Made by a program: the position numbers and the translations under genes
Notes under the pieces: model-generated
The model's input: the letters and a program-made list of their open reading frames with translations, nothing else
What the model was told of the DNA's origin: nothing
Databases searched by the model: none
Source of the DNA: a virus
Lineage: Duplodnaviria > Heunggongvirae > Uroviricota > Caudoviricetes
Length of the DNA stretch: 22,920 nucleotides
Strand: one strand, 5' to 3'
Virus record (IMG/VR): IMGVR_UViG_2859777919_000008
Shown: one piece after another, positions 392 through 22,920 of the stretch
Position numbering within the stretch: position 1 is the first letter of the stretch
Layout: every line of letters begins with the position of its first letter

Positions 392-422
392 GGTAAATCC
401 CCCTGTTGGTAATGACTCCAAC

Positions 423-925
423 TTATTGATAGTGTTTTATGTTCAGATAATGCCCGATGACTTTGTCATGCAGCTCCACCGATTTTGAGAACGACAGCGA
501 CTTCCGTCCCAGCCGTGCCAGGTGCTGCCTCAGATTCAGGTTATGCCGCTCAATTCGCTGCGTATATCGCTTGCTGATTACGTGCAGCTTTCCCTTCAGG
601 CGGGATTCATACAGCGGCCAGCCATCCGTCATCCATATCACCACGTCAAAGGGTGACAGCAGGCTCATAAGACGCCCCAGCGTCGCCATAGTGCGTTCAC
701 CGAATACGTGCGCAACAACCGTCTTCCGGAGACTGTCATACGCGTAAACAGCCAGCGCTGGCGCGATTTAGCCCCGACATAGCCCCACTGTTCGTCCATT
801 TCCGCGCAGACGATGACGTCACTGCCCGGCTGTATGCGCGAGGTTACCGACTGCGGCCTGAGTTTTTTAAGTGACGTAAAATCGTGTTGAGGCCAACGCC
901 CATAATGCGTGCAGTTGCCCGGCAT
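423..925 (-). pseudogene. insB: IS1 InsB transposase, frameshifted
   Basis: InsB sequence is split over ORFs 665-925 and 423-689. The break follows ...AKSRQRWLF; the plus strand reads gtaaacag at 744-750 where canonical IS1 has gtaaaacag, a 1-nt deletion in a homopolymer run. This is distinct from the programmed insA-insB slip site. Confidence 0.8.
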
Positions 926-1119
926 CCAACGCCATTCATGGCCATATCAATGATTTTCTGGTGCGTACCGGGTTGAGAAGAGGTGTAAGTGAACTGCAGT
1001 TGCCATGTTTTACGGCAGTGAGAGCAGAGATAGCGCTGATGTCCGGCAGTGCTTTTGCCGTTACGCACCACCCCGTCAGTAGCTGAACAGGAGGGACAGC
1101 TGATAGAAACAGAAGCCAC
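844..1119 (-). CDS. insA: IS1 InsA
   Basis: 91 aa [46 protein letters not shown]..., recognisable as IS1 InsA with its zinc-finger/HTH N-terminus. Confidence 0.9.
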
Positions 1120-1189
1120 TGGAGCACCTCAAAAACACCATCATACACTAAATCAGTAAGTTGGCAGCATCACCTCATTCGTCTGTTCC

Positions 1190-1696
1190 TTAAATCTTCC
1201 AGGAAATTTCTGCATTGCCGTCAGCATCACCGGCACCTGTGAATTCAGCGTTGGTCAGCACCACGTTTTTGCCACTGACTGACGTGGACATGAATCCACC
1301 CAGCGGCACTTTGATGGATTCATCAGTGGAGACGACAACGTATACCGGATCGCCTTTTTTGATAGTGCTGGCATCAAAATCAGAACCGAGATTAACGGTC
1401 ACGTAGCCACGCTTCATGGCGTCGCCCGGGAAGTTCTTGCCTGTTCCCACCTGGCGAACCATGTCCGGCTGCGACGTGGTCGGATAAGGGCGCACGTAGA
1501 TCCCCTTCACCTTGTCTGCGGTATCACCATCTGCCAGCGGCACGAAAAAACCGTCATCATCGTATTTACCAGCCAGGCCATAGGCAGCGAAGGCGTTATC
1601 GGATTTAAGGACCACCGGTTCGACGGTTAAGTCCTGCGGGCGAGAGACAGCCCCGGCAATGCCAACAGGCATCCGGTACAGAAATACATTATTCAT
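1190..1696 (-). CDS. phage head-associated structural protein (function uncertain)
   Basis: 168 aa ORF immediately downstream of the head gene cluster, 3 nt after the preceding gene; its stop lies 15 bp from the IS1 end. Assignment is by gene context only. Confidence 0.5.
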   Translation of the reverse strand: MNNVFLYRMPVGIAGAVSRPQDLTVEPVVLKSDNAFAAYGLAGKYDDDGFFVPLADGDTADKVKGIYVRPYPTTSQPDMVRQVGTGKNFPGDAMKRGYVTVNLGSDFDASTIKKGDPVYVVVSTDESIKVPLGGFMSTSVSGKNVVLTNAEFTGAGDADGNAEISWKI

Positions 1697-1699
1697 TTT

Positions 1700-2920
1700 T
1701 TACCCTTTACGGTTTGCCCAGAATTCAGCGTTTTGTTTGTTCAGGGAAGCGATACTGGTCATGCCCATGTTTAGGCGCTGTGCATCGCCGGTGGTGGCGC
1801 GGGTGTTTCGCCCTTTGGCAACCTCAGACACGGCATTAAACGCCATGTCGACCGATTGTTTCGGTAATTTGCGGATATCCGCATCACCGACTATCTGGCG
1901 AACCAGCGTTTTGTCAGCAGAAGCCAGAACCTCGCGTTTGAACGCGGTCGGTTTCATCTTACGGCTCAGATCGATACCCGGAACGATAACTTCGGCACGC
2001 CAGGCTGAGTCACCAGTAATCGTGGTTTCCTCTTCATCGTCCTCGCCGTCACCGGTCGGATTATCGTCAGGCTTATTATCGTTATCGCCCGTGGCATTTC
2101 TTTCCAGCTTAGCCAGCAGGGCTTTCAGTAATGTTTTGAGGTCATCATCACTGTCGCCGGTTGGATCTCCGCCCATCTCTGGTGCTTTGTCCGGTAGTGG
2201 TTGCTGCGGGGACAGGTTGATGTTGAGATTAACGCCCTGCGGCAAATCCCCCTCATCTCCTGTAACCGATGCGGGAGCCGACTCCACCAGTTCGTTCATG
2301 GTGTCGGCATCTCCTGTCTTGATGGCCGCACGCATGCGGTTCCACCAGTTTTTCTTTTGATTTGCCATTGTGTCTCTGTCTCCAATTGCACAACGATTTC
2401 CGGCTCTGCCTTTAGGGACAAGAGCCACATGGTTTCCGGTAATATCGACCTGCTCGGCTTTACCTGGCTCGGTCTGCTCGTACTCCGCGTCATAGCCGCA
2501 CGACACTTCGCGCAGGCCATCTTCGATAAGCTGAATGGCGCTTTCGTCTTTGACGATAAGGTCAGCCAGCATCAAATCAGACTGCTCACCCGTCCCGCGC
2601 CGGACATTCTGGAGGTGCCCGACAGCAAGCTCTTTCCAGTTCTCGGGATTTACCAGCCGCACATTCCCGTTTTCATCTTCAGGATGCAGGATCGTGATGC
2701 TCATCCCTTCGAATGAGGCAAGCGTGGCCGGATGGAATACCTGCTCAGGAGAACGCGTGACGACTATTTCACCGAACTTATCGGGTTTCAGTTTTGGCAG
2801 GTCATCAGCACCATAGAGCTGCTTACCTGTTCGTCCTATCGGCACGTCTTTGCACAGCAACGAGCCGTCAGCCAGGCGGTATCGGGTTTCCCCGAGCCTG
2901 GTCTCAAAAAAGTATTTCAT
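1700..2920 (-). CDS. phage head protein, scaffold/maturation-like, with acidic Gly/Asp-rich linker
   Basis: 406 aa ORF tightly packed after the head morphogenesis gene; contains a long acidic low-complexity linker (TGDSDDD...GDGEDDEEE) typical of scaffold-type head proteins. Exact family not resolved. Confidence 0.5.
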   Translation of the reverse strand: MKYFFETRLGETRYRLADGSLLCKDVPIGRTGKQLYGADDLPKLKPDKFGEIVVTRSPEQVFHPATLASFEGMSITILHPEDENGNVRLVNPENWKELAVGHLQNVRRGTGEQSDLMLADLIVKDESAIQLIEDGLREVSCGYDAEYEQTEPGKAEQVDITGNHVALVPKGRAGNRCAIGDRDTMANQKKNWWNRMRAAIKTGDADTMNELVESAPASVTGDEGDLPQGVNLNINLSPQQPLPDKAPEMGGDPTGDSDDDLKTLLKALLAKLERNATGDNDNKPDDNPTGDGEDDEEETTITGDSAWRAEVIVPGIDLSRKMKPTAFKREVLASADKTLVRQIVGDADIRKLPKQSVDMAFNAVSEVAKGRNTRATTGDAQRLNMGMTSIASLNKQNAEFWANRKG

Positions 2921-2923
2921 GGG

Positions 2924-3706
2924 TTATGCTGCCCTTTTCATTGCGAATGGAACGCGAACAAACACGATCTCTTTATAGCAGCGGCAGTTTGGCAGCTCGC
3001 CCGCGTGGCCGGTCATGCCGTCCAAAGTTGGAGGTGAATCCCAGCGGACGAATTTACCTTTCATGTGATCGTGGGAATCTCGGACATCGCCATCATCGGC
3101 TGTACGCCAAATATAACCATCCGAGCCAATAGCTATCGCTCGGGCCATATCCAGCGCGCCCGTTGCTCTTCCCAGTTCCGTTCGGGCAATCAGATCGGCC
3201 CTAGACTTAGCAACATCGCCGGTAGATGCAATCTCTTTAGCAAACTGCTCCGCCCGACCACCGGTGACAACAGCCTCTATCGCTTTGTTCTGGATGTCGT
3301 ACACCCTGTCTGCGGCCTCGAGAGGCAGAGATTTGATGTACTTGACCTGTTCGGCGATGATGGATTGCATCACCTGGCCCACAGGAGCGCTTTCCACAAG
3401 ATTGCGGAGCTCGCGACTGATGTTCTTGCTGTGTTGCCGCCAAACTTTCTCGTTCTGCCGGGTTAGGTCCGCAGTAAAGTTTTCCGCGACCTTTGTCGCC
3501 CAGGGGGTGATGATTTCACTGTAACGCTCCAGCGCCGCAATAATTTCCGTGATACTGTCATTTGAACCATCGTAGCGACCATTTACGATGTCTCCGACCG
3601 CCCTCGCTATCCTGCGTAGGCTGGTTCGATACCGGATTTCCGCCTGACGGCTCCTGCGGTTCGTCATCAGGTTCGCCGATGCCGGGCGGCGCTTCATCTT
3701 CGGCAT
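2924..3706 (-). CDS. phage head morphogenesis (minor head) protein, SPP1 gp7 / Mu F-like
   Basis: 260 aa ORF following the portal gene, family-like C-terminal region (...IWRTADDGDVRDSHDHMKGKF...LPNCRCY). The annotated start overlaps the portal 3-prime end by about 149 nt, so the true start is uncertain. Confidence 0.65.
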   Translation of the reverse strand: MPKMKRRPASANLMTNRRSRQAEIRYRTSLRRIARAVGDIVNGRYDGSNDSITEIIAALERYSEIITPWATKVAENFTADLTRQNEKVWRQHSKNISRELRNLVESAPVGQVMQSIIAEQVKYIKSLPLEAADRVYDIQNKAIEAVVTGGRAEQFAKEIASTGDVAKSRADLIARTELGRATGALDMARAIAIGSDGYIWRTADDGDVRDSHDHMKGKFVRWDSPPTLDGMTGHAGELPNCRCYKEIVFVRVPFAMKRAA

Positions 3707-5024
3707 TCTCGATGTCCTCGTCGGTAATGGATGCCCCGATGCCGGTTACGTCAGAATTTTCTCGCAAATCAGTCATAGCGGCTTTCAGTGTCATCAGACC
3801 ATCACCCAGCGCCGTACTGATTGCGTTGGTGGTGTTTAACGCCACCGTTGAGCGATCGACATCAGACATTTGCCAGAGCGGGTTAAACTCAAACGTGAAA
3901 TCGTCCGGCAGCGGCTTGCCAAGTTCCGAACGATGCATGATGTCCAGTATCCGCCGCACCGGAAGACGTAAACGCCTCTCCTGCAACGAACTGATGCGAT
4001 CGTAATAGTTGGCAAGGTCTGCATCACCGGTAGAAAATCCTTTCGGGGACTGTCCGAACAACCGCACCAGTGGGATACCAACAGCGCCACTAATCTGTTC
4101 TACAAACTGCGAAAGGATGTCATCCAGACCACTGAAGCTGTACTGATGGGTTTCAAACTTATCCCGCGAGTCCATGAGCGTCATGCCTTCATTACTCTGG
4201 AACTGTCGAATCAGGTCGATATTCTTCAGCAACGCTTCATACGCAGGACCACCAAGTGCGATAAGCTCGCGTAGCTTCTCCACGCTGTAGGTACGCAAAT
4301 GCGCCTTGTAGACCAGCTGCGCCGCGCCGACAGTAGCGCTGTCGAACGCGGTAAGACGATCCCAGATACGCTCTACAACCGACATTCCCCATTCGTTCTC
4401 GGTCATCTTCTGCTGAAATGGCAACGTGACGCCATCAAAGCGAATCAGGCGACTGTGATGAATGCGCCAGGCAGGAATTCCCGTTGCTGTGGTCACCACA
4501 TCGTAAAACTCAGGTTTACCCAGGTCCGGCCCCATATCTTTAATGCGGCGGGTCAGTGCCGGGTCGACCATCCAGCGGTCGAGCGGGAGAATCCCCTTAA
4601 ACTTGCCCTTACCGATGGTTTCGGGTCGCAGCGGGGTCATTGGTGCCTACCCCTCAATCATGATGAAACCCACCGCGCCGCCGTAGAGGCGCGACCATTT
4701 CAGCACGTCATTCAGCGCATCCCAGATTTGCAACTCATCCAGTTGTGATTCGAGAATGCCACGATCTTTTGCATCAATTTCCGAAGTGATGCGAATGCCT
4801 TTGCGGGTCATATCATCCGGGATAGCATCGACTGCTTCGCCGATGATCTAGGATGAACGATAGGACCATTCCACCAGCATGCGGTTACGACTGGTGAAAT
4901 TAGCCCGGTAGGTGGATGCTGAGTGCTGGTTAGGTGTCTGCATCCCTACGCGGGCAATAAAATTCTCATAACCATCAGCTGTGGCCTGCACAGTTCGCCG
5001 CAGGGCTTGTTTGTTTCGTGCCAT
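3558..5024 (-). pseudogene. phage portal protein with two in-frame amber (TAG) codons
   Basis: ATG at 5024-5022 overlaps the large terminase stop (TGATG). One continuous frame runs to the stop at 3558 (488 sense codons) and is broken only by TAG at codon 59 (plus-strand cta 4848-4850) and TAG at codon 126 (cta 4647-4649). The 360 aa ORF 3558-4640 is the C-terminal part; the N-terminal part reads MARNKQALRRTVQATADGYENF... Confidence 0.7.
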
Positions 5025-6454
5025 CAGGCCTGTCTCCCCAGCTGTTCCCAGATATCCAGCGATGTATCGATTGGCGCGAAGGCCATAATGAATGCATCAG
5101 CAACGTTTGGTGACGGTATCTCGCGTTTTGCGAGGTCTTTTTTACTTTCGACCATCACACGTCCGTTACGGTCGAAATCACGATGAGGTGTTGTCAGTTC
5201 CAGTTTCAGCTTTTCAAGCAACGGACAACGAGAATCTATGCTGATCAGCTCATCCACAGGATACTGTTCTCCGTTGTTAATGGCGTTAAACGTATTTCTG
5301 AAACGGTCAGCCACCAGCCACCATGCCTGAGCCTTAAGATTTGCGAAAAAGTCTTTGTTGGGGATGCCGTTGTACTCGTCATCTGGCTCATGCACACCAG
5401 CACCGGCGTTAAACCTCTGGTAATTCACACGTCGCGCGTATGCGTTCTCGCTCTTCCGGTCAGCGTTAATTTCAGAGAATTTAGCACCGGCAGACGCACC
5501 AACACCGATAGAGTCGTAAACAATATCTGCTTCACGCTCCAGCGCCGCCTGATAAGTACGCTGGCAGCTCTTCAGTAATTCATCTTCTTTGGCCTTCCAT
5601 TCGTCGGCCCAGAAAACAACGGATCCGTGACGGTAAACGTTAGCGCACTTATCTGTACCACTGTCAGCCACGTCAAAGCCAATACGCTTTCTTCCACTGG
5701 GTTCGAAATTTAACGTTTTGTGCGCATCCACTGCGGCTTCTATCCAAGACAGTTTGATGATTGCCGCATCATCATCAGACTCCGGAACGCCCTCATACAC
5801 ATGTTTAAAACCATCCGGATCACGGCGTCGCGCCGCGTCGATAACCTTAAGCATGGTGTCAGACAGAAACGGATTTTCGTCATAGTTAATTTTGCGGATG
5901 AGAGTGCCTTCGGGCGGATCAACAACGAAGTTGCGCCAGACGAAATCAGTAACAAGTCCGGGGTTGAATATGAACCAGCATTCCGAACCCTCTTTACGGA
6001 TCGTTGGCTCCAGAATTTTCCACTGGTATTCCGTCAGTGCGTGGGCTTCTTCCAGCCACAACACATCGATCCCCTCCAGTGACTTAATTTCTTCGATGTT
6101 GCGCCATAATCCATAAAAAACAAATTCCGAGCCAGTAACCCGGTTAATGATTTTGTTGTTCAGAATACGGAAACGGTGCCGCAGACCAAACCTGTCTATC
6201 TGAATTTTGAGCAGGGTATACACCGACTCTTCGATTTTATTCTGGATCTGACGGGCACAACAAAAACGCAGGGTGTATTTATTCGACAGAAATATGGCAA
6301 TGCCAGCGGCATCCCATGATTTTGACGATGACCGACCACCATAAAGCACTTTGTTACGTGCCCGCATAGTCCAGAAACTACGTAAAGCCGGATTCAGCGT
6401 CGGTTTGGATGTCAGAGTAGAAGTCATTGAGGTCACGCTCTCCATTGCCATCAT
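5024..6454 (-). CDS. phage terminase large subunit
   Basis: ORF 5024-6535 carries a Walker A-like motif (YGGRSSSKSW) followed by a nuclease-type C-terminal region. A likely start near the internal Met cluster (MMAME, about 6454) overlaps the terS 3-prime end; start codon uncertain. Confidence 0.8.
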   Translation of the reverse strand: MMAMESVTSMTSTLTSKPTLNPALRSFWTMRARNKVLYGGRSSSKSWDAAGIAIFLSNKYTLRFCCARQIQNKIEESVYTLLKIQIDRFGLRHRFRILNNKIINRVTGSEFVFYGLWRNIEEIKSLEGIDVLWLEEAHALTEYQWKILEPTIRKEGSECWFIFNPGLVTDFVWRNFVVDPPEGTLIRKINYDENPFLSDTMLKVIDAARRRDPDGFKHVYEGVPESDDDAAIIKLSWIEAAVDAHKTLNFEPSGRKRIGFDVADSGTDKCANVYRHGSVVFWADEWKAKEDELLKSCQRTYQAALEREADIVYDSIGVGASAGAKFSEINADRKSENAYARRVNYQRFNAGAGVHEPDDEYNGIPNKDFFANLKAQAWWLVADRFRNTFNAINNGEQYPVDELISIDSRCPLLEKLKLELTTPHRDFDRNGRVMVESKKDLAKREIPSPNVADAFIMAFAPIDTSLDIWEQLGRQA

Positions 6455-7937: not shown

Positions 7938-8408
7938 CTACCCCCCAAGGCATTGGATCCTGATGTACTCCTGAAGCATTCTCAATGCTGTCTGGTCGCT
8001 GATGATTCCGTCCCGGATACCGAGAACGTTTCGTCCAGCAACTGGAGAGAGTTCGACGGTGGCATCATTGCCCATGCCGGAGGCGCTGGAGGTTTCGGCT
8101 GAGGATGGCACAGGGCATTTTCCTTTGACGAGCACCCGACCACCATTATCAAGCTTGCGCCGAAGAGCATCATTTTCAGCTTTCGCATCAGCTAACTCCT
8201 TCGTGTATTTAGCATCGAGTGCATCAGCATCACGCTGGCGCTGCTGCATGTCAGTAATGGTTGCGTTCGCCAGCTTCAGTTCTCTTGCGTTTTTGTCGCG
8301 CTGCTCTTTGTAGGTAATGGCGTTATCACGGTAATGATTAACAGCCCATGACAGGCGGACGATGATGCAGATAACCAGAGCGGAGATAATCGCGGTGACT
8401 CTGCTCAT
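7938..8408 (-). CDS. Rz-like i-spanin (lysis)
   Basis: ORF 7938-8420; probable start [17 protein letters not shown]... at 8408 overlapping the endolysin stop. N-terminal TM segment plus coiled-coil region as in lambda Rz. Confidence 0.75.
7982..8188 (-). CDS. Rz1-like o-spanin lipoprotein, embedded in Rz
   Basis: ORF in an alternative frame wholly inside Rz: [22 protein letters not shown]... with lipobox (VVGC) and proline-rich region ([16 protein letters not shown]), the lambda Rz1 architecture. Exact start uncertain. Confidence 0.7.
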
Positions 8409-8902
8409 TGCTGCCCCCACAAACAGACTTCACGCTCAATCTCACGACGGGTCATCAGCCCTTTCCATTGCTTACCGCCAGCATATGTCCAGCGACATAG
8501 CTGGTCACATGCGCCTTTGATATAGCCCTGGTTTATTTTGCGAAGAAGCGTCGATGTTCTGAAATTGCCAGCGCCCACGTTGTAAACGAACGAGTAAAGA
8601 GCGCCGCGCGTTGTTTCCGGTATATCGACTTTGATGTACGGGTTAATTTGTCTGGCGACAGTGGCAAGGTCTTTATTCAGGAGAGCTTTGCATTCTGCTT
8701 CGGTATACGTTTTACCAGGCATGATGTCTTTTCCGGTGTGTCCGTGACATACAGTCCATACACCAATGATATCTTTGTATAGTATGTAGCTGACACCTTC
8801 CAGACCATCGTTACCACCTGGGCCAGTGATTAACACAGATGCTATAGCAACAGCCCCGCCACCAATAGCAACTGCAACAGCCTTGCGTAATGATGGCGAC
8901 AT
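8405..8902 (-). CDS. phage endolysin, lambda R / lysozyme family
   Basis: 165 aa [42 protein letters not shown]...[21 protein letters not shown], closely resembling lambdoid prophage lysozymes (RrrD/RrrQ type) with an N-terminal signal-anchor-like segment. Confidence 0.9.
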
Positions 8903-9015
8903 TATTCACCTCTCGCAGCCTTACTAGACTGGCCCCCTGAATCTCCAGACAACCAGTATCACTTAAATAAGTGATAGTCTTAATACTAGTTTTTAGACTA
9001 GTCATTGGAGTACAG

Positions 9016-9381
9016 ATGATTGATGTCTTAGGGCCGGAGAAACGCAGACGGCGTACCACACAGGAAAAGATCGCAATTGTTCAGCAGAGCTTTGAACCGG
9101 GGATGACGGTCTCCCTCGTTGCCCGGCAACATGGTGTAGCAGCCAGCCAGTTATTTCTCTGGCGTAAGCAATACCAGGAAGGAAGTCTTACTGCTGTCGC
9201 CGCCGGAGAACAGGTTGTTCCTGCCTCTGAACTTGCTGCCGCCATGAAGCAGATTAAAGAACTCCAGCGCCTGCTCGGCAAGAAAACGATGGAAAATGAA
9301 CTCCTCAAAGAAGCCGTTGAATATGGACGGGCAAAAAAGTGGATAGCGCACGCGCCCTTATTGCCCGGGGATGGGGAGTAA
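9016..9381 (+). CDS. insC: IS2 InsC (OrfA)
   Basis: [56 protein letters not shown]..., recognisable as IS2 OrfA; the ORF track starts 15 codons earlier. Confidence 0.9.
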
Positions 9382-10244
9382 GCTTAGTCAGCCGTTGTCT
9401 CCGGGTGTCGCGTGCGCAGTTGCACGTCATTCTCAGACGAACCGATGACTGGATGGATGGCCGCCGCAGTCGTCACACTGATGATACGGATGTGCTTCTC
9501 CGTATACACCATGTTATCGGAGAGCTGCCCACGTATGGTTATCGTCGGGTATGGGCGCTGCTTCGCAGACAGGCAGAACTTGATGGTATGCCTGCGATCA
9601 ATGCCAAACGTGTTTACCGGATCATGCGCCAGAATGCGCTGTTGCTTGAGCGAAAACCTGCTGTACCGCCATCGAAACGGGCACATACAGGCAGAGTGGC
9701 CGTGAAAGAAAGCAATCAGCGATGGTGCTCTGACGGGTTCGAGTTCTGCTGTGATAACGGAGAGAGACTGCGTGTCACGTTCGCGCTGGACTGCTGTGAT
9801 CGTGAGGCACTGCACTGGGCGGTGACTACCGGCGGCTTCAACAGTGAAACAGTACAGGACGTCATGCTGGGAGCGGTGGAACGCCGCTTCGGCAACGATC
9901 TTCCGTCGTCTCCAGTGGAGTGGCTGACGGATAATGGTTCATGCTACCGGGCTAATGAAACACGCCAGTTCGCCCGGATGTTGGGACTTGAACCGAAGAA
10001 CACGGCGGTGCGGAGTCCGGAGAGTAACGGAATAGCAGAGAGCTTCGTGAAAACGATAAAGCGTGACTACATCAGTATCATGCCCAAACCAGACGGGTTA
10101 ACGGCAGCAAAGAACCTTGCAGAGGCGTTCGAGCATTATAACGAATGGCATCCGCATAGTGCGCTGGGTTATCGCTCGCCACGGGAATATCTGCGGCAGC
10201 GGGCTTGTAATGGGTTAAGTGATAACAGATGTCTGGAAATATAG
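9339..10244 (+). CDS. insD: IS2 InsD (OrfB, DDE transposase domain)
   Basis: 301 aa ORF overlapping insC in the -1 frame, recognisable as IS2 OrfB. Confidence 0.9.
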
Positions 10245-18023: not shown

Positions 18024-18770
18024 ATGAAAAATATTGCGACAGGCGGCGTTCTGGAACGCATCCGCCGACTGACCCCGCCACATGTAACCGCCCCATTCAG
18101 AACGGTAGCGGAGTGGCGCGAGTGGCAACTTGCTGAAGGCCAGAAACGTAGCGAGGAGATCAACCGCCTGAATCGCCAGTTGCGGGTGGAAAAAATTCTG
18201 AATCGCTCAGGCATCCAGCCGTTGCACCGTAAATGCTCGTTTGCGAATTACCAGGTGCAGAACGACGGCCAGCGATACGCGTTAAGCCAGGCGAAATCCA
18301 TCGCCGATGAACTGATGACCGGGTGTACAAATTTTGCGTTCAGCGGAAAACCTGGTACCGGGAAGAATCACTTAGCGGCAGCTATCGGGAATCGCCTGCT
18401 GAAAGACGGTCAGACAGTGATTGTGGTTACCGTGGCTGATGTTATGAGCGCCCTGCACGCCAGCTATGACGACGGGCAGTCAGGCGAAAAATTTTTGCGG
18501 GAGCTGTGCGAAGTGGATCTGCTGGTTCTTGATGAAATTGGCATTCAGCGCGAGACGAAAAACGAGCAGGTGGTGCTGCACCAGATTGTTGATCGCCGGA
18601 CAGCGTCGATGCGCAGCGTGGGGATGCTGACAAACCTGAACTATGAGGTGATGAAAACATTGCTCGGCGAGCGGGTGATGGATCGCATGGTCATGAACGG
18701 CGGGCGCTGGGTGAATTTTAACTGGGAGAGCTGGCGTCCGAATGTTAGCCATTCGAGGGTTGTTAAGTAG
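18024..18770 (+). CDS. dnaC: DnaC-like replicative helicase loader (AAA+)
   Basis: 248 aa; ...SFANYQVQNDGQRYALSQAKS...NFAFSGKPGTGKNHLAAAIGNRLL...VDLLVLDEIGIQ...IVDRR...MLTNLNYEVMKTLLGERVMDRM... aligns along its length with E. coli DnaC (Walker A GKPGTGKNHLA, Walker B LLVLDE). Confidence 0.9.
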   Translation: MKNIATGGVLERIRRLTPPHVTAPFRTVAEWREWQLAEGQKRSEEINRLNRQLRVEKILNRSGIQPLHRKCSFANYQVQNDGQRYALSQAKSIADELMTGCTNFAFSGKPGTGKNHLAAAIGNRLLKDGQTVIVVTVADVMSALHASYDDGQSGEKFLRELCEVDLLVLDEIGIQRETKNEQVVLHQIVDRRTASMRSVGMLTNLNYEVMKTLLGERVMDRMVMNGGRWVNFNWESWRPNVSHSRVVK

Positions 18771-18784
18771 TTTCAGGAGGATTT

Positions 18785-19207
18785 ATGGCGAAACCTTTTA
18801 CTCCCGAACAGCGGGAAGAACTGAAGACGCGAATTGTGGAACTCGTGCATCAGGACGGTCGGGTCACGATTCGGCAGTTGTCAGATGAAACAGGTATCAG
18901 TCGTGCGTCTGTCGGTCGCTTATGCATAGAACTGGTCGCAAGTGGTGATGTATATAATTCTGGCTACGGCTTATTCCCGTCTGAACAGGCTCGCAAGGAC
19001 TGGCAAAGCGCCCGCAAAAAACTCTCGAGAGTAAAGGTGAGGAAACCGGTTGTTGTTGATCCGGACCTTATCTGGTCATTACCTGACGGAGAAATACGCC
19101 GCTACGACAGGCGCCTGAATATAATCTGTCGCGAGTGCCGGAAGAGCGAAGCTATGCAGCGTGTACTGGCTTTCTATCAGGGTAATTTTCAGGAGGCGAT
19201 ACTGTGA
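18785..19207 (+). CDS. hypothetical prophage protein with predicted winged-helix DNA-binding N-terminus
   Basis: 140 aa ORF with good coding character; N-terminal HTH-like segment (VTIRQLSDETGISRASVGRLCIELVASGDV). Confidence 0.45.
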   Translation: MAKPFTPEQREELKTRIVELVHQDGRVTIRQLSDETGISRASVGRLCIELVASGDVYNSGYGLFPSEQARKDWQSARKKLSRVKVRKPVVVDPDLIWSLPDGEIRRYDRRLNIICRECRKSEAMQRVLAFYQGNFQEAIL

Positions 19208-19264
19208 ATGAAATTAGCTATCAGGCTTCAATTACCGCTGGCATTCGCATCAAAGGAGAGGAGC

Positions 19265-19621
19265 ATGGAAATAAAACCAGAAGATGAGTTAAGCAATATC
19301 GTTTTATTTCCGGTAAAAGAGGATGACCCTCGTAATCAGGTTAATTTTCTTTATGAGCCATCGGAAAGACCATATTGCCATCACGCCTCTGTACGGGTTG
19401 ACGAAAAAGAGCGTCAGGTCCGCTGTAAAATCTGCGGTGCGGTTGTGGAGCCGTTTGACTGGATGCTCTCTGTGGCAAAAAGAGAAACCAGACTGGCAGA
19501 TGATGTAAGGCTATTGCGCCAGGAGGAACAGGAAAGGCGGAGAAATATAGAAAAGCTGATACAGATTGAGCGTAACGCGAAAGCGCGGATACGCAGGGCG
19601 ACAAAATCCAGAACTGAATAA
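19265..19621 (+). CDS. hypothetical prophage protein with zinc-ribbon-like Cys/His motif
   Basis: ORF 19208-19621; the internal start at 19265 (MEIKPEDEL...) has a strong SD (aaaggagaggagc). Contains CHH...CKIC and a basic/coiled C-terminus. Confidence 0.45.
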   Translation: MEIKPEDELSNIVLFPVKEDDPRNQVNFLYEPSERPYCHHASVRVDEKERQVRCKICGAVVEPFDWMLSVAKRETRLADDVRLLRQEEQERRRNIEKLIQIERNAKARIRRATKSRTE

Positions 19622-19768
19622 TTAAATTTAGCACTGTTAAAAATTTAATCCTTAACCGGAGGGATTTCTGCACCCTCAAATCATCAGGAGACCACCCGAA
19701 AGGGCGGGGAGCAGTCACACATCTGTTTCCGATAGCCCCGTTCTAATGCTACACTCTTTGATATTTTT

Positions 19769-20455
19769 ATGACCCCAATAAACATATTTATGACAGTTGC
19801 TGATTTCAAACGGCCCAAATTGGAGCTCCCAAACGGGGCAAACAAACTACTACTGCACTCTTGCTGTGCTCCATGTTCCGGTGAGGTGATGGAGGCGCTT
19901 CAGGCCTCGGGAATCGACTACACCATCTTTTTCTACAACCCGAACATTCATCCTCAGAAAGAGTATTTAATTCGTAAGGATGAGAATATTCGCTTTGCTG
20001 AACAACACGGCGTGCCGTTTATTGATGCTGATTACGACACAGACAACTGGTTTGAACGAGCCAAAGGAATGGAATGGGAGCCCGAACGAGGGATCCGTTG
20101 CACCATGTGTTTTGACATGCGTTTTGAGCGGACAGCGCTGTACGCCGCTGAAAATGGTTTCAGTGTGATCAGCAGTTCACTGGGCATTTCACGCTGGAAA
20201 AATATGCAGCAGGTTAACGACTGTGGGCGGCGAGCCGTCGCGCATTATCCGGGCATGGTGTACTGGGATTATAACTGGCGCAAGCAGGGCGGCTCGTCCC
20301 GTATGATTGAAATCAGCAAGCGCGAAAAATTCTATCAGCAGGAATATTGTGGCTGTGTGTATTCTCTGCGCGATACCAATCTACACCGCAAATCTCAGGG
20401 ACGCCCTCTTATCAAAATTGGTCAACTCCACTACGGTAAAGAAGAGAAGGAGTGA
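19769..20455 (+). CDS. queH: QueH-like epoxyqueuosine reductase (DUF208 family, Fe-S)
   Basis: 228 aa; family-like motifs [38 protein letters not shown] and [11 protein letters not shown] (QueH cluster-binding Cys signature). Start may be the internal Met at 19790. Confidence 0.7.
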
Positions 20456-20476
20456 TTTTATGGGGCACCTTTCTGA

Positions 20477-20506
20477 TTGATTTCATATTGGCGAGGTAAG
20501 TAGAAT
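20477..20506 (+). promoter_or_regulatory. putative sigma70 promoter of the hok mRNA
   Basis: -35 ttgatt (20477-20482), 18-bp spacer, -10 tagaat (20501-20506); the predicted start about 20511-20513 coincides with the 5-prime element that pairs with the mRNA 3-prime end. Confidence 0.4.
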
Positions 20507-20682
20507 GACTGCGGGTGCTTGAGGCTATCTGCTTCAGGCATGAACACCAAAAGGCAGATAGAGAAAAGCCCCAGTTAACATTACGCGTCCGGCAAGACGC
20601 TTAACATTAATCTGAGGCCAATTTCATGCTTTGCACATGTAGGTTAGCCTCTTACATGCCGAAAGGCAAGGAGAAGCAGGCT

Positions 20683-20838
20683 ATGAAGCAGCAAAAGGCG
20701 ATGTTAATCGCCCTGATCGTCATCTGTTTAACCGTCATAGTGACGGCACTGGTAACGAGGAAAGACCTCTGTGAGGTACGAATCCGAACCGGCCAGACGG
20801 AGGTCGCTGTCTTCGTAGACTACGAATCCAGGAAGTAA
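20683..20838 (+). CDS. hok: Hok/Gef-family type I toxin (membrane-depolarising peptide)
   Basis: MKQQKAMLIALIVICLTVIVTALVTRKDLCEVRIRTGQTEVAVFVDYESRK (51 aa) is nearly identical over most of its length to E. coli HokD/RelF and HokC/Gef; the ORF track starts 19 codons earlier in the same frame. Confidence 0.85.
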   Translation: MKQQKAMLIALIVICLTVIVTALVTRKDLCEVRIRTGQTEVAVFVDYESRK

Positions 20839-20915
20839 GAGTGACCGGGCGGGGAGCTGATCCCATCCCCGCCCACCTCTGATGTGTCAGGCATCCTCAA
20901 CGCACCCGCACTTAA

Positions 20916-20958
20916 CCCGCCCATCGCTGTGATCTCTCAGCGTTTCGGCGGGTTTTTT
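20916..20958 (+). terminator. rho-independent terminator of the hok transcript
   Basis: Stem cccgcc (20916-20921) / ggcggg (20947-20952) enclosing an inner hairpin cgctg/cagcg, followed by tttttt (20953-20958). Confidence 0.5.
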
Positions 20959-21087
20959 GTTGTTTATTTCCGGTGAATTTGATTCGCGCACCTTCGCAGA
21001 TAGAATCGACTCACTTAAGTAGCGCGCAGGGAGAAGAGGGATGGACCCCGAACAGGGGAGAGCTATTTATCTGGAAGGATTCTGAAG

Positions 21088-21375
21088 ATGAAAATCGAAG
21101 AATTGCGTGAAATTTTTAGTGAAAATGGCCTCTATGCTGTGCGCGTTGAGAATGGAGCGATTGTCAGCCATTGCCGCATTAGATGTTTGCAATCTCAACA
21201 AAGGAAGAGCGGTGCTGTGTTATTTTATTTTTGTAATGGACTTCTGACGGACGGTTTTATTTTGCGTGAGGACGAATTTGTCACATCATTACGGGTTTTG
21301 AAAGAGATTGGTTTTAAGGCTGGTTTTCTGCTTTTGCTGAAGAATAAACTCATCTACAATCTTGAGCAGGATTGA
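21088..21375 (+). CDS. hypothetical small prophage protein
   Basis: 95 aa ORF, AT-rich, overlapping the next ORF start by 4 nt (atga); no recognisable motif. Confidence 0.35.
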   Translation: MKIEELREIFSENGLYAVRVENGAIVSHCRIRCLQSQQRKSGAVLFYFCNGLLTDGFILREDEFVTSLRVLKEIGFKAGFLLLLKNKLIYNLEQD

Positions 21376-21720
21376 ACTCCTGCTGTGTAACACCGTGCCA
21401 CCGGAGAAAGCCGATGGCACATATACAACTGGTCAAACAAACCTCTTCCGGATTACTTCTCCCGGCGACGCCGGAGAGTTGCGATTTTCTGCATCAAATC
21501 AAAATAGGTGAGTGGATACACGCAGACTTTAAGCGTGTGTGTAACTACGCATTCCACAAGCGTTTTTTCAAACTCCTGCAACTGGGTTTCGATTACTGGA
21601 CTCCGGTCGGTGGGGCGATCACGCCTCGCGAACGAAAACTGGTGTCCGGTTTCGTTGATTACCTGTGTGAATCAGTAGGCCGGGAACATACGCCAGCTCT
21701 GAGCGAAGCCGCAGAGCAAT
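21372..21720 (+). pseudogene. hypothetical prophage protein, 3-prime end interrupted by IS600
   Basis: ORF 21372-21767; the native sequence (probable start MAHIQLVKQ... at 21414) ends at ...SEAAEQL where the IS600 end (tgaggtgtactggc, 21721) begins; the last residues of the called ORF are IS-derived. Confidence 0.45.
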
Positions 21721-21763
21721 TGAGGTGTACTGGCAATAGCGGACACTACCATTTGTTCTTTTT

Positions 21764-22582
21764 TTAAGCAGCCATCTGATGATATTTTTCCCTGAAGGCT
21801 GCCGGGGAGATATTCCCCAGACGAGAGTGACGACGCTGACGATTGTAGAAAATCTCAATGTATTCCCGTATTACTGAGATGGCTTCATCCCGGTTATTAA
21901 AACGATAGTGGCTCAGGCTCTCATTTTTCAGCGTTCCCCAGAAGCTTTCCATCGGAGCGTTGTCGTAACAGTTACCTTTACGCGACATTGATGTTTTCAG
22001 ACCAGACTGCTCCTGTATGACCCGGTAATCGTATGCGCAGTACTGTGAACCTCGATCAGAGTGGTGGATTAGCCCGGCAGGTGGGCGCTGGCTCCTGAGC
22101 GCCATAAACAGGGCTTTACCTGTCAGCTCTTTTGTCATGCGCTCTCCCATGGCGTAGCCGACAATTTCGCACGTATAAACATCTTTGATGCCAGCGAGGT
22201 ACAACCATCCCTCCTGTGTGGCAACATACGTCAGGTCCGCCACCCAGACCTGATTTGGTGCTGTAGGAGCGAACGTCTGGTTCAGCAGATTTGGCGCAAC
22301 TGGCAGATTGTGGTTCGAGTTCGTAGTCGCTCTGAACTTGCGTTTCTGCTTACAGCGTAGCCTTAGCTCCTTACGAAGACGTGCCAGTCGGTCACGACCA
22401 ACGATGATGCCATTCTCTGCCAGCTCCGTCTGGAGCCGCCGGGTTCCATATGTTTCGCGAGTGCGGATATGTGCCACCTTAATCTCCAGTTTTAGCCGCT
22501 CATCACTTTGTTTTCTGTCTGAGGGTTCATGCTGTACCCAGTTGTAATAACCGCTCCTGGATACACCAAATACCTGACACAT
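21764..22582 (-). CDS. IS600 OrfB (DDE transposase)
   Basis: 272 aa, identical in protein sequence to the OrfB of the copy at 16120-16938. Confidence 0.9.
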   Translation of the reverse strand: MCQVFGVSRSGYYNWVQHEPSDRKQSDERLKLEIKVAHIRTRETYGTRRLQTELAENGIIVGRDRLARLRKELRLRCKQKRKFRATTNSNHNLPVAPNLLNQTFAPTAPNQVWVADLTYVATQEGWLYLAGIKDVYTCEIVGYAMGERMTKELTGKALFMALRSQRPPAGLIHHSDRGSQYCAYDYRVIQEQSGLKTSMSRKGNCYDNAPMESFWGTLKNESLSHYRFNNRDEAISVIREYIEIFYNRQRRHSRLGNISPAAFREKYHQMAA

Positions 22583-22617
22583 CGCTTCAATGGGAAATTG
22601 TTGTCGCCATTGTTCGA

Positions 22618-22920
22618 TTAACGCGTATTTTTCAGCGACTCCTGTGCAAAATACGCTGTTGCTTTTTTTAATATATCTCGCTCAAGGCGAGCTTCATTTA
22701 ACGCCTTACGCAGTTGCAGAATTTCAGATTCCAGTTCAGCCACCGTGCGGGAACCAGGAGTACCGAGCCCTTTTCTGGCGGCGGTAACCCATTGTCCTAA
22801 AGTGCCTTCAGGAAGAGATAATCGGGAAGCGCCTTCACTGATCGAAAGTTGATTTTCAGGAACCGTTCTGACAGCTTCGGCTTTGAACTCTTTAGAGTAA
22901 CGTTGGGTTTTTCTGCTCAT
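22618..22920 (-). CDS. IS600 OrfA
   Basis: 100 aa; differs from the other two copies by one residue (VRTVPENQ vs VRTVLENQ; plus-strand cagg vs caag near 22857). Confidence 0.85.
   Translation of the reverse strand: MSRKTQRYSKEFKAEAVRTVPENQLSISEGASRLSLPEGTLGQWVTAARKGLGTPGSRTVAELESEILQLRKALNEARLERDILKKATAYFAQESLKNTR

Follow-up and report, generated by a model that had tools for sequence, protein, structure and literature searches.

Introduction

The closest described relative of the portal gene considered here is the intact allele encoding WP_000113499.1, found, for example, in FDAARGOS_944, VL40, and E. coli 53638. It is the same gene in the same place after the large terminase gene (TerL), and 1464 of its 1467 bases are identical; it differs in having TGG at codon 59, CAG at codon 126, GCA at codon 308, and an open frame of 488 amino acids. 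Portal proteins of the same family are found in the Salmonella phage SEN34 (Brunovirus; YP_009191609) and in phage vB_EcoM-606R2, with DNA identities of 85% and 98%, respectively. These two phages share the order of head genes: TerS, TerL, portal, Mu-F-like, DUF2213, cement, and capsid. Both genomes are complete and their portal gene is open, whereas the locus described here is an IS-riddled remnant. Structures have been solved for more distant portal proteins (roughly 25–30% identity) from cyanophage Pam3 (PDB 8hds; homology over residues 15–413, E 2e-37) and Pseudomonas phage E217 (gp19, 8fvh; homology over residues 58–367, E 1e-14).

There are precedents for amber codons in genes of this kind. 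The classical amber (“sus”) head-gene mutants likewise have an in-frame UAG in an otherwise intact head-gene frame. However, they are laboratory mutants of complete phages, used with suppressor hosts, whereas the phage described here is incomplete, and no suppressor was found in the window or in the tRNA arrays of its relatives. A second parallel comes from lacI, where deamination of 5-methylcytosine turns Dcm sites into tenfold hotspots for amber mutations (Coulondre, Miller, Farabaugh and Gilbert 1978, reviewed in PMC12606429). One of the two ambers described here, W59*, is alike in that a change at a putatively methylated C gives TAG; the other, Q126*, differs in that it lies outside a Dcm site. 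A third parallel is the decay of Shigella genomes by IS insertion and point mutation, with every Shigella reference genome containing at least 199 pseudogenes (Hawkey et al. 2020, PMC7373316). The portal gene is one more instance of this decay, fixed amid copies of IS1, IS2, and IS600.

The gene lies in a 22,920-nt stretch of viral DNA, IMG/VR record IMGVR_UViG_2859777919_000008, referred to here as the window. Judging by its match to the S. sonnei chromosomes CP022457 and CP019689 (14.6 kb with 1 mismatch), the window is a segment of Shigella sonnei chromosome. The gene is a pseudogene, and hence a non-working member, of the Phage_portal_3/DUF1073 family. We are highly confident that it is an ordinary pseudogene of a defective S. 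sonnei prophage (a SEN34-like lambdoid/myovirus remnant) that arose by two point mutations.

A portal frame with two internal amber codons

The portal pseudogene occupies positions 3558..5024 on the minus strand. Reading from 5024 to 3558 gives a single frame of 489 codons (stop included), which ends in its native TGA at 3560–3558 and is interrupted just twice, by a TAG each at codon 59 (4850–4848) and codon 126 (4649–4647). Alignment with intact 1467-nt homologues is gap-free. The first-pass annotation of this DNA had described a single portal frame with two TAGs and no frameshift, and both the translation and the ungapped alignment bear this out. When the two codons are repaired, the predicted protein matches Pfam PF06381 (Phage_portal_3) with 348 bits over residues 55–402 (cut-off 33.8), a span that contains both stops. 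It also matches TIGR01555 with 255 bits (cut-off 196) and PHROG 146 (“portal protein”) with an E value of 1e-174. These are full-length profile matches to the Phage_portal_3/DUF1073/HI1409 family. Chance comes nowhere near accounting for an open frame this long that also matches the family over its full length. The portal frame is therefore real, but with TAG at codons 59 and 126 it is not the uninterrupted frame needed for a full-length subunit.

The gene is directly downstream of the large terminase gene in a head-morphogenesis operon, with Mu-F-like, scaffold-like, and cement genes next. TerL (5024..6427, minus strand; 467 aa) is still open, and its stop codon shares one base, at 5024, with the portal ATG. 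The three downstream head genes (1190..3706, minus strand) are also still open: a Mu-F-like head morphogenesis gene (2924–3706), a DUF2213/Pa193_gp24-like gene (1700–2920), and a cement protein gene (1190–1696).

The portal frame now contains three shorter ORFs, all on the minus strand. The N-terminal remnant (4848..5024) has 58 aa and is annotated as “putative bacteriophage protein” in S. sonnei. Between the ambers is a separately annotated 54-aa ORF (4647..4811) that covers portal residues 72–125 and is equivalent to PHROG 28295. The C-terminal remnant (3558..4640) has 360 aa, covers portal residues 129–488, and appears in UniProt as Q3Z426_SHISS. The 54-aa and 360-aa ORFs are probably leftovers of the portal frame rather than genes.

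Both amber codons are derived and fixed in S. sonnei

The closest intact alleles (L003 and L004; WP_000113499.1) come from other Shigella and enteroinvasive E. coli, and are 99.8% identical to the portal gene in the window. The three differences are TGG>TAG (W59*), CAG>TAG (Q126*), and GCA>GTA (A308V), all of them GC>AT transitions on the minus-strand gene. The first amber (4848..4850) is due to G>A at window position 4849; the ancestral TCC TGG includes the Dcm site CCTGG (4852–4848). The second amber (4647..4649) is due to C>T at window position 4649, within GGCAGGC, and, like the codon 308 change (4101..4103), it lies outside a Dcm site. The first-pass annotation had suggested that intact homologues would reveal the original codons. 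Indeed, TGG and CAG are found at codons 59 and 126 in L001–L004 and in ten further complete genomes (L026–L035), as well as in the more distant phages vB_EcoM-606R2 and SEN34. Codon 126 is still CAG in S. dysenteriae Sd197, and the Pam3 portal shares both W59 and Q126 in the alignment. Because every intact relative carries TGG and CAG, both ambers are derived; derived stops at positions where the orthologues have sense codons are the mark of a pseudogene.

In 9 of 10 complete S. sonnei genomes, 53G among them, the portal gene is identical to that in the window and has both TAGs. TAG is also present at codon 126 of the tenth. Codons in these genomes were read at a fixed offset, and an upstream 1-base indel in the tenth genome shifts the position of codon 59, making it unreadable. 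Each of the 58-, 54-, and 360-aa fragments occurs on >1000 contigs, in 2576 blocks; Ss046 is among these contigs. The complete genomes and the contig fragments together show that both lesions truly exist and have become fixed in S. sonnei.

The surrounding prophage is defective

A copy of IS1 (408..1174) sits at a rearrangement junction and has no target-site duplication. This junction cuts the operon at the start codon of the major capsid gene and joins it to chromosome from the pgl side, leaving the capsid and tail genes detached. The holin gene is split by IS2 (8924..10255), with a 5-bp target duplication, and an IS110-family element (10464..11911) lies just upstream of the holin start. The early region (13699..22920) is rearranged and inverted between copies of IS600 (13699–14406, partial; 16076–17344; 21720–22920). 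Relative to an intact relative, it has frameshifts of +2 and −10 at 17546–17684 and of −1 at 15509. With the IS1 junction, the IS2 insertion, and the frameshifted early region, the element is non-viable irrespective of the portal gene, and the neighboring genes are under relaxed selection. The other eight late genes of the block are still open. An Rfam scan found sok RNA alone.

Mutation bias favors amber codons

The late block is collinear over 7750 bp between the window and L003/L004, and contains 15 changes: 4 synonymous, 9 missense, and 2 nonsense. Hence, 11 of the 15 are non-synonymous or nonsense, and 9 of the 15 are GC>AT, with outgroup polarisation covering only the three portal changes. 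This mix fits relaxed selection together with the usual spontaneous mutation spectrum. Local hypermutation of the portal gene was considered, given that all three of its changes are GC>AT, but it was rejected because the same is true of 9 of the 15 changes in the block.

Why are both stop codons TAG? The commonest codons in the portal gene that are one transition away from a stop are CAG (17 codons) and TGG (11 codons). The probability of a stop per substitution is ~0.05, and the probability of TAG given a stop is 0.50–0.57. Thus, mutation bias accounts for both stops being TAG. There is also a local effect for one of them. The portal gene has three Dcm sites, two of which can yield an amber, and in W59* (CCTGG>CCTAG) the G:C>A:T transition hits the second C of the CC(A/T)GG motif. 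This change likely arose by deamination of 5-methylcytosine, whereas Q126* and A308V do not have the Dcm hotspot signature. The dcm gene is normally part of the E. coli/Shigella core genome.

To put numbers on chance, 15 substitutions with the observed spectrum were placed on the 7750-bp block under neutrality. The probability of at least two nonsense changes was 0.13, the probability that both fall in one gene was 0.027, and the probability that both fall in one gene and are TAG was 0.007; these values are post hoc, being computed after the portal gene had been singled out. The first-pass annotation had called it notable that a decaying gene should have two identical stop codons and no indels. 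The post hoc values of 0.027 and 0.007 weakly favor that view, while mutation bias largely explains the pattern. Two TAG hits in the same gene among only three portal changes are nonetheless uncommon in the simulation, which counts against a neutral reading, as does the intact state of the eight other late genes.

Lesions in other Shigella lineages

The same module is damaged elsewhere in Shigella. In S. dysenteriae Sd197, IS1 has inserted in the portal gene. In S. flexneri, TerL has a 7-bp slippage deletion at a tandem 7-mer, the site being window positions 5317–5323. The 360-aa ORF is also annotated in S. dysenteriae, suggesting that Q126* might be shared with that species; this was rejected because the S. 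dysenteriae ORF results from the IS1 truncation, and its CAG is intact. Intact relatives of the prophage carry ipaH.

Intermediates of the three portal mutations were sought by exact look-up of hypothetical sequences. Each amber singly, and the form with V308 only, were found on just five short Logan (short-read) contigs, with an S. flexneri-type background for the single ambers. The order of the three mutations could not be established because there are four-gamete conflicts among the Logan contigs, at 4849/4649, 4849/4102, 4950/2772, and 4102/2772. Some of these conflicts are explained by mutations recurring at two places, the Dcm site and the TerL tandem 7-mer. The remainder call for recombination among nearly identical copies of the prophage, for mixed samples, or for chimeras of the de Bruijn graph. 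A simple one-lineage history leaves the single-amber contigs unexplained.

Possible explanations for the amber codons

The favored explanation is ordinary neutral decay. Two independent spontaneous G:C>A:T transitions created the in-frame ambers at codons 59 and 126, and both became fixed in the S. sonnei clone. In a prophage with no connected capsid and tail genes, a split holin gene, and a broken early region, selection probably no longer acts on the portal gene, and its nonsense codons are probably just the outcome of neutral decay so far. The gene is expected to yield nothing longer than an N-terminal peptide of 58 residues. Of the three options offered in the first-pass annotation, it is inactivation by point mutation within a defective prophage that is backed by the TGG/CAG homologues and by the wreckage from IS elements and frameshifts.

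Could the portal gene instead have been inactivated by selection, either because this locks in a useful prophage or because it removes a toxic or defence-triggering protein? This is unlikely, although several observations point toward it: the TerL–portal pair has independent lesions in three lineages (the S. sonnei ambers, the S. flexneri TerL deletion, and the S. dysenteriae portal IS1), two nonsense hits in one gene are an infrequent outcome of the neutral simulation (0.027), and each amber also occurs singly in rare S. flexneri-type contigs. On the other hand, a single hit kills the gene, such that the second amber brings no gain. Moreover, the lesions lie at mutation-prone sequences (the Dcm site and the tandem 7-mer), IS insertions are rampant in Shigella (PMC7373316), the mix of synonymous and non-synonymous changes around the portal gene looks neutral, and the p-values are post hoc. 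A broader version of the idea, which we also regard as improbable, is that the TerL–portal pair of this widespread Shigella/EIEC prophage family has been repeatedly disabled under selection, with the Dcm-site amber as a recurrent route. If so, knocking out packaging would immobilise a beneficial prophage or silence a harmful or defence-sensed protein.

The perfectly preserved frame and the use of the same codon for both stops would suit a functional portal made with a supE-type host, with a phage-encoded suppressor tRNA, or by recoding of TAG, and a Gln-inserting suppressor would restore Q126 exactly. This is highly improbable. The relatives have sense codons at both sites, meaning that the TAGs are recent lesions and not conserved recoding, and W59 is conserved as far as Pam3, so Gln at codon 59 would not be the wild-type residue. 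ARAGORN found no tRNA genes in the window, and the tRNA arrays of the intact relatives (Met/Ile, Arg, Thr, and Gly/Val) have no CUA anticodon. Stop-codon-recoded phages also make a poor match: in-frame TAGs are confined to the portal gene, with none in the other late genes, and TAG is the true stop of two neighbors, the 254-aa gene and Rz. Nor is the rest of the phage complete, as it is for sus mutants; a suppressed portal protein would be left without assembly partners, given the IS1-detached capsid and tail genes and the IS2-split holin gene. Suppression or recoding, another of the options in the first-pass annotation, is thus unsupported, and would not matter. Its remaining option, that the TAGs are sequencing or assembly errors in a gene that is really intact, has almost no chance of being correct. 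The window assembly is imperfect, as three homopolymers are 1 nt shorter than in other S. sonnei genomes, but these differences are indels within IS copies, and none of the assembly errors are substitutions. The identical double-TAG gene in independent complete genomes, and its exact fragments in Ss046 and on >1000 contigs, exclude sequencing error. We give equally little credence to the possibility that the region is naturally three genes, with the real protein starting at the ATG at 4640, downstream of a separate gene. Annotation pipelines do predict the three ORFs, a Shine-Dalgarno-like motif (GAGGGG) lies 9 nt upstream of that ATG, and the 360-aa ORF recurs in S. dysenteriae. However, the S. 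dysenteriae ORF is an IS1 truncation with codon 126 intact, portal HMMs cover all three pieces, and in E. coli, Salmonella, and Citrobacter phages the homologue is encoded by one gene of 488 aa, which excludes a natural start at 4640.

Implications

As a neutral pseudogene, the portal gene carries little biological weight, being one of hundreds that mark Shigella genome decay. It is, however, a clean natural example of a mutation bias under which nonsense codons are amber by default, with CAG and TGG abundant as precursors and a Dcm site (CCTGG) as a hotspot. It also shows that a head-gene block can look complete and yet contain a dead portal gene; a prophage score based on gene content would miss this. 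Lastly, it is a warning that pseudogene fragments are annotated as proteins, and even seed database “families” such as PHROG 28295. A literature search found no paper on this specific portal lesion; the fragments themselves are already known in reference annotations, as with Q3Z426_SHISS.

A fixed portal pseudogene

The portal gene is a fixed pseudogene in an IS-riddled prophage remnant of Shigella sonnei, and its two amber codons are real but ordinary. Window positions 5024 to 3558, on the minus strand, translate as a single 489-codon frame that ends in a natural TGA (3560-3558) and is interrupted just twice, by TAG at codon positions 59 (4850-4848) and 126 (4649-4647). When both stops are masked, profile searches match the protein to Pfam PF06381 Phage_portal_3 (348 bits, residues 55-402, spanning both stops; the family once named DUF1073), to TIGR01555, to PHROG 146 “portal protein” (E 1e-174), and to two solved portal structures, that of cyanophage Pam3 (8hds, E 2e-37) and that of gp19 from Pseudomonas phage E217 (8fvh). 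The gene start overlaps the stop of the large terminase gene by one base, and Mu-F-like, DUF2213 and then cement-protein genes lie downstream. Translation, portal models and gene neighbors all agree with the coordinates and description of the frame in the first-pass annotation. Some NCBI records call fragments of the protein “anti-CBASS protein Acb1 family protein”; this name looks like annotation drift, since Pfam, PHROGs, TIGR01555 and both solved structures say portal.

What did the two codons originally encode? Full-length DNA matches to the gene occur in 7 phage records, and 382 of 5426 complete E. coli genomes have a match, which covers 80% or more of the gene in 338 of these genomes. 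The best three matches in the E. coli collection (99.8%) come from ipaH- and IS600-bearing strains (Shigella-like or enteroinvasive); in their annotation the gene is intact and its 488-aa product is a “DUF1073 domain-containing protein” (WP_000113499.1). Compared codon by codon, the window differs from these alleles at exactly three places: TGG>TAG (W59*), CAG>TAG (Q126*) and GCA>GTA (A308V). The corresponding bases are G, C and C in another ten complete genomes that carry the intact allele. Two phages at a greater distance, vB_EcoM-606R2 (98%) and Salmonella phage SEN34 (85%), likewise have TGG and CAG, and both W59 and Q126 are conserved in the alignment with the Pam3 portal. Because all of these intact homologs have sense codons, a check that the first-pass annotation had proposed, both ambers are derived single transitions. 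The gene normally encodes one 488-aa protein.

Error, suppression or split genes?

Sequencing error, one of three explanations initially offered for the ambers, is excluded by independent S. sonnei genomes. Among ten complete S. sonnei chromosomes compared at the portal, including 53G (HE616528), nine have a gene identical to that of the window, both TAGs included; in the tenth, codon 126 is TAG, and an upstream one-base indel shifts the fixed-offset read at codon 59. The exact 360-aa residual ORF is present in 2576 collection blocks, and the 58-, 54- and 360-aa pieces of the frame are each found on >1000 contigs and are named S. sonnei proteins (for example, Q3Z426_SHISS of strain Ss046). Thus, the portal lesions are already in reference annotations, as fragment ORFs, and the ambers are fixed in the S. 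sonnei clone. Natural gene structure fares no better as an explanation: the homologs are single 488-aa proteins and the ambers are derived, which rules out both naturally split genes and the suggested start at 4640. Amber suppression or recoding is likewise unsupported. ARAGORN found no tRNA genes in the window, the tRNA arrays of intact relatives (Met/Ile, Arg, Thr, Gly or Val) have no CUA anticodon, and the window's other late genes have no in-frame TAG. TAG is the terminating codon of two neighbors, the 254-aa gene and Rz. The sense codons at both sites in relatives show that this is not conserved recoding, and, with an incomplete prophage, a suppressor would leave the conclusion as it is.

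Over 14.6 kb, CP022457 and CP019689 agree with the window except for one mismatch and three one-base homopolymer gaps, all within IS copies. These deletions relative to other S. sonnei genomes, at 746, 11230 and 13268 (A4>A3, C3>C2 and A4>A3), look like errors of long-read assembly in the genome from which the window comes; that at 11230 breaks an IS110-family transposase ORF (398 aa elsewhere) into 222 and 138 aa. Separately, the ORF between the ambers (4647-4811, minus strand) is exactly the stretch matched by phrog_28295 (PHROGs v4), whose 54 positions align over their whole length with portal residues 72-125. This database “family of unknown function” appears to have started from a pseudogene fragment.

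Origin of the ambers

The ancestral context of codon 59, TCC TGG, contains the Dcm site CCTGG, and Dcm is taken to be active in S. sonnei. The G>A change of W59* is the exact product of methylated-cytosine deamination on the opposite strand (CCAGG>CTAGG). The portal gene has only three CCWGG sites, two of which would yield an amber. Such sites are known from lacI as the classic tenfold hotspots for amber mutation (Coulondre et al. 1978, summarised in PMC12606429). The other two changes, Q126* (GGG CAG GCA) and A308V, are ordinary C>T substitutions that do not lie in Dcm sites. The pseudogene was thus created by two spontaneous G:C>A:T transitions, one of them at a Dcm hotspot.

A 7750-bp collinear block has 15 positions at which the window departs from both of its closest relatives, and no indels; of these changes, only the three in the portal are polarized by outgroups. 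Four are synonymous, nine missense and two nonsense, and G:C>A:T accounts for 9/15, a mix in keeping with relaxed selection and with the usual spectrum of spontaneous mutation. When all possible substitutions in the ancestral portal are enumerated, the probability of a stop is ~0.05 per substitution under the observed spectrum. TAG makes up ~50-57% of such stops, since the codons that a single transition turns into a stop are most often CAG (17 codons) or TGG (11 codons). When 15 substitutions were placed on the block 200,000 times, the simulated probability was 0.13 for two or more nonsense changes, 0.027 for both in one gene, and 0.007 for both in one gene and both TAG; these values are post hoc, the gene having been chosen because it looked odd. 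The lack of indels in the portal needs no explanation, since the gene has only three substitutions, and indels do exist elsewhere in the prophage. The pattern of same-type stops without indels, initially considered notable, is real, but it is at most weakly remarkable, since mutation bias largely explains it. Shigella reference genomes each have at least 199 pseudogenes (PMC7373316).

State of the prophage

Compared with the intact relative L003, the late operon is gap-free and collinear over the stretch that begins with the lysozyme gene and closes with that for the cement protein (8924-1175), where an IS1 (408-1174) placed on the major-capsid start codon terminates it. This IS1 links the head operon with the pgl side of the chromosome and lacks a 9-bp target duplication, which marks it as a rearrangement junction; the capsid, tail and ipaH end have been separated from the late operon. 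An IS2 (8924-10255) splits the holin gene with a clean 5-bp duplication and is therefore a simple insertion, and immediately upstream of the holin is an IS110-family element (10464-11911). Relatives have a tRNA array that the window's prophage lacks. IS600 copies flank the inverted early region, which carries indels of +2 and −10 in a replication-region ORF and −1 in a ydaT-like gene. Whether or not the two UAGs are read through, no version of the locus could yield a virion. The remaining initial explanation, inactivating point mutations in a defective prophage, is therefore borne out by two derived transitions in an IS-broken, frameshifted element. The early region also has a hok/sok-type toxin-antitoxin locus (20513-20838, plus strand), with a sok RNA at 20513-20688 (Rfam RF01794, 117 bits) and a Hok-like 70-aa ORF at 20626-20838.

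Decay in sister lineages

The same prophage in other Shigella, ~99.7-99.9% identical, decays in different ways. In S. dysenteriae Sd197, the portal is truncated by IS1 near codon 103 and CAG126 is intact; its “360-aa” ORF is a gene-caller artifact. S. flexneri (77-aa fragment Q7UDC3_SHIFL, strain 2457T) has an intact portal and a frameshifted TerL: S. flexneri-type copies have lost one unit of a tandem 7-mer, TGGTGGC TGGTGGC (5317-5323, minus strand), splitting TerL into 391 and 77 aa. This 7-mer is a slippage-prone site and may mutate recurrently.

An exact look-up of hypothetical intermediate alleles found other combinations in five short-read (Logan) contigs and in no NCBI assembly. Four of them carry versions of the S. 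sonnei-like allele with one amber or none: L021 has W at codon 59, a stop at 126 and V at 308; L023 has W and a stop, with codon 308 not covered; L024 has W, Q and V; and L025 has a stop, Q and A. The fifth, L022, has W at codon 59 and ends just before codon 126, with codon 308 not covered. Most of the five have the S. flexneri-type TerL deletion, and all four allele combinations occur at several pairs of sites (among 4950, 4849, 4649, 4102, 2772 and 2631). These odd combinations are the sole basis for proposing a repeated, possibly selected knock-out of packaging genes, which is unlikely. Recurrence at the Dcm site and the 7-mer can explain part of them, and the remainder would have to come from mixed samples, chimeric assembly or recombination between prophage copies that are nearly identical.

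The lysozyme and Rz genes (8138-8781, minus strand) hold 8 of the 15 differences from the closest relatives within ~650 bp, and seven of the eight alter an amino acid. Six are shared with L022, an S. flexneri-type contig, which suggests that the cluster is a recombined patch or an older shared allele rather than recent S. sonnei-specific mutation.
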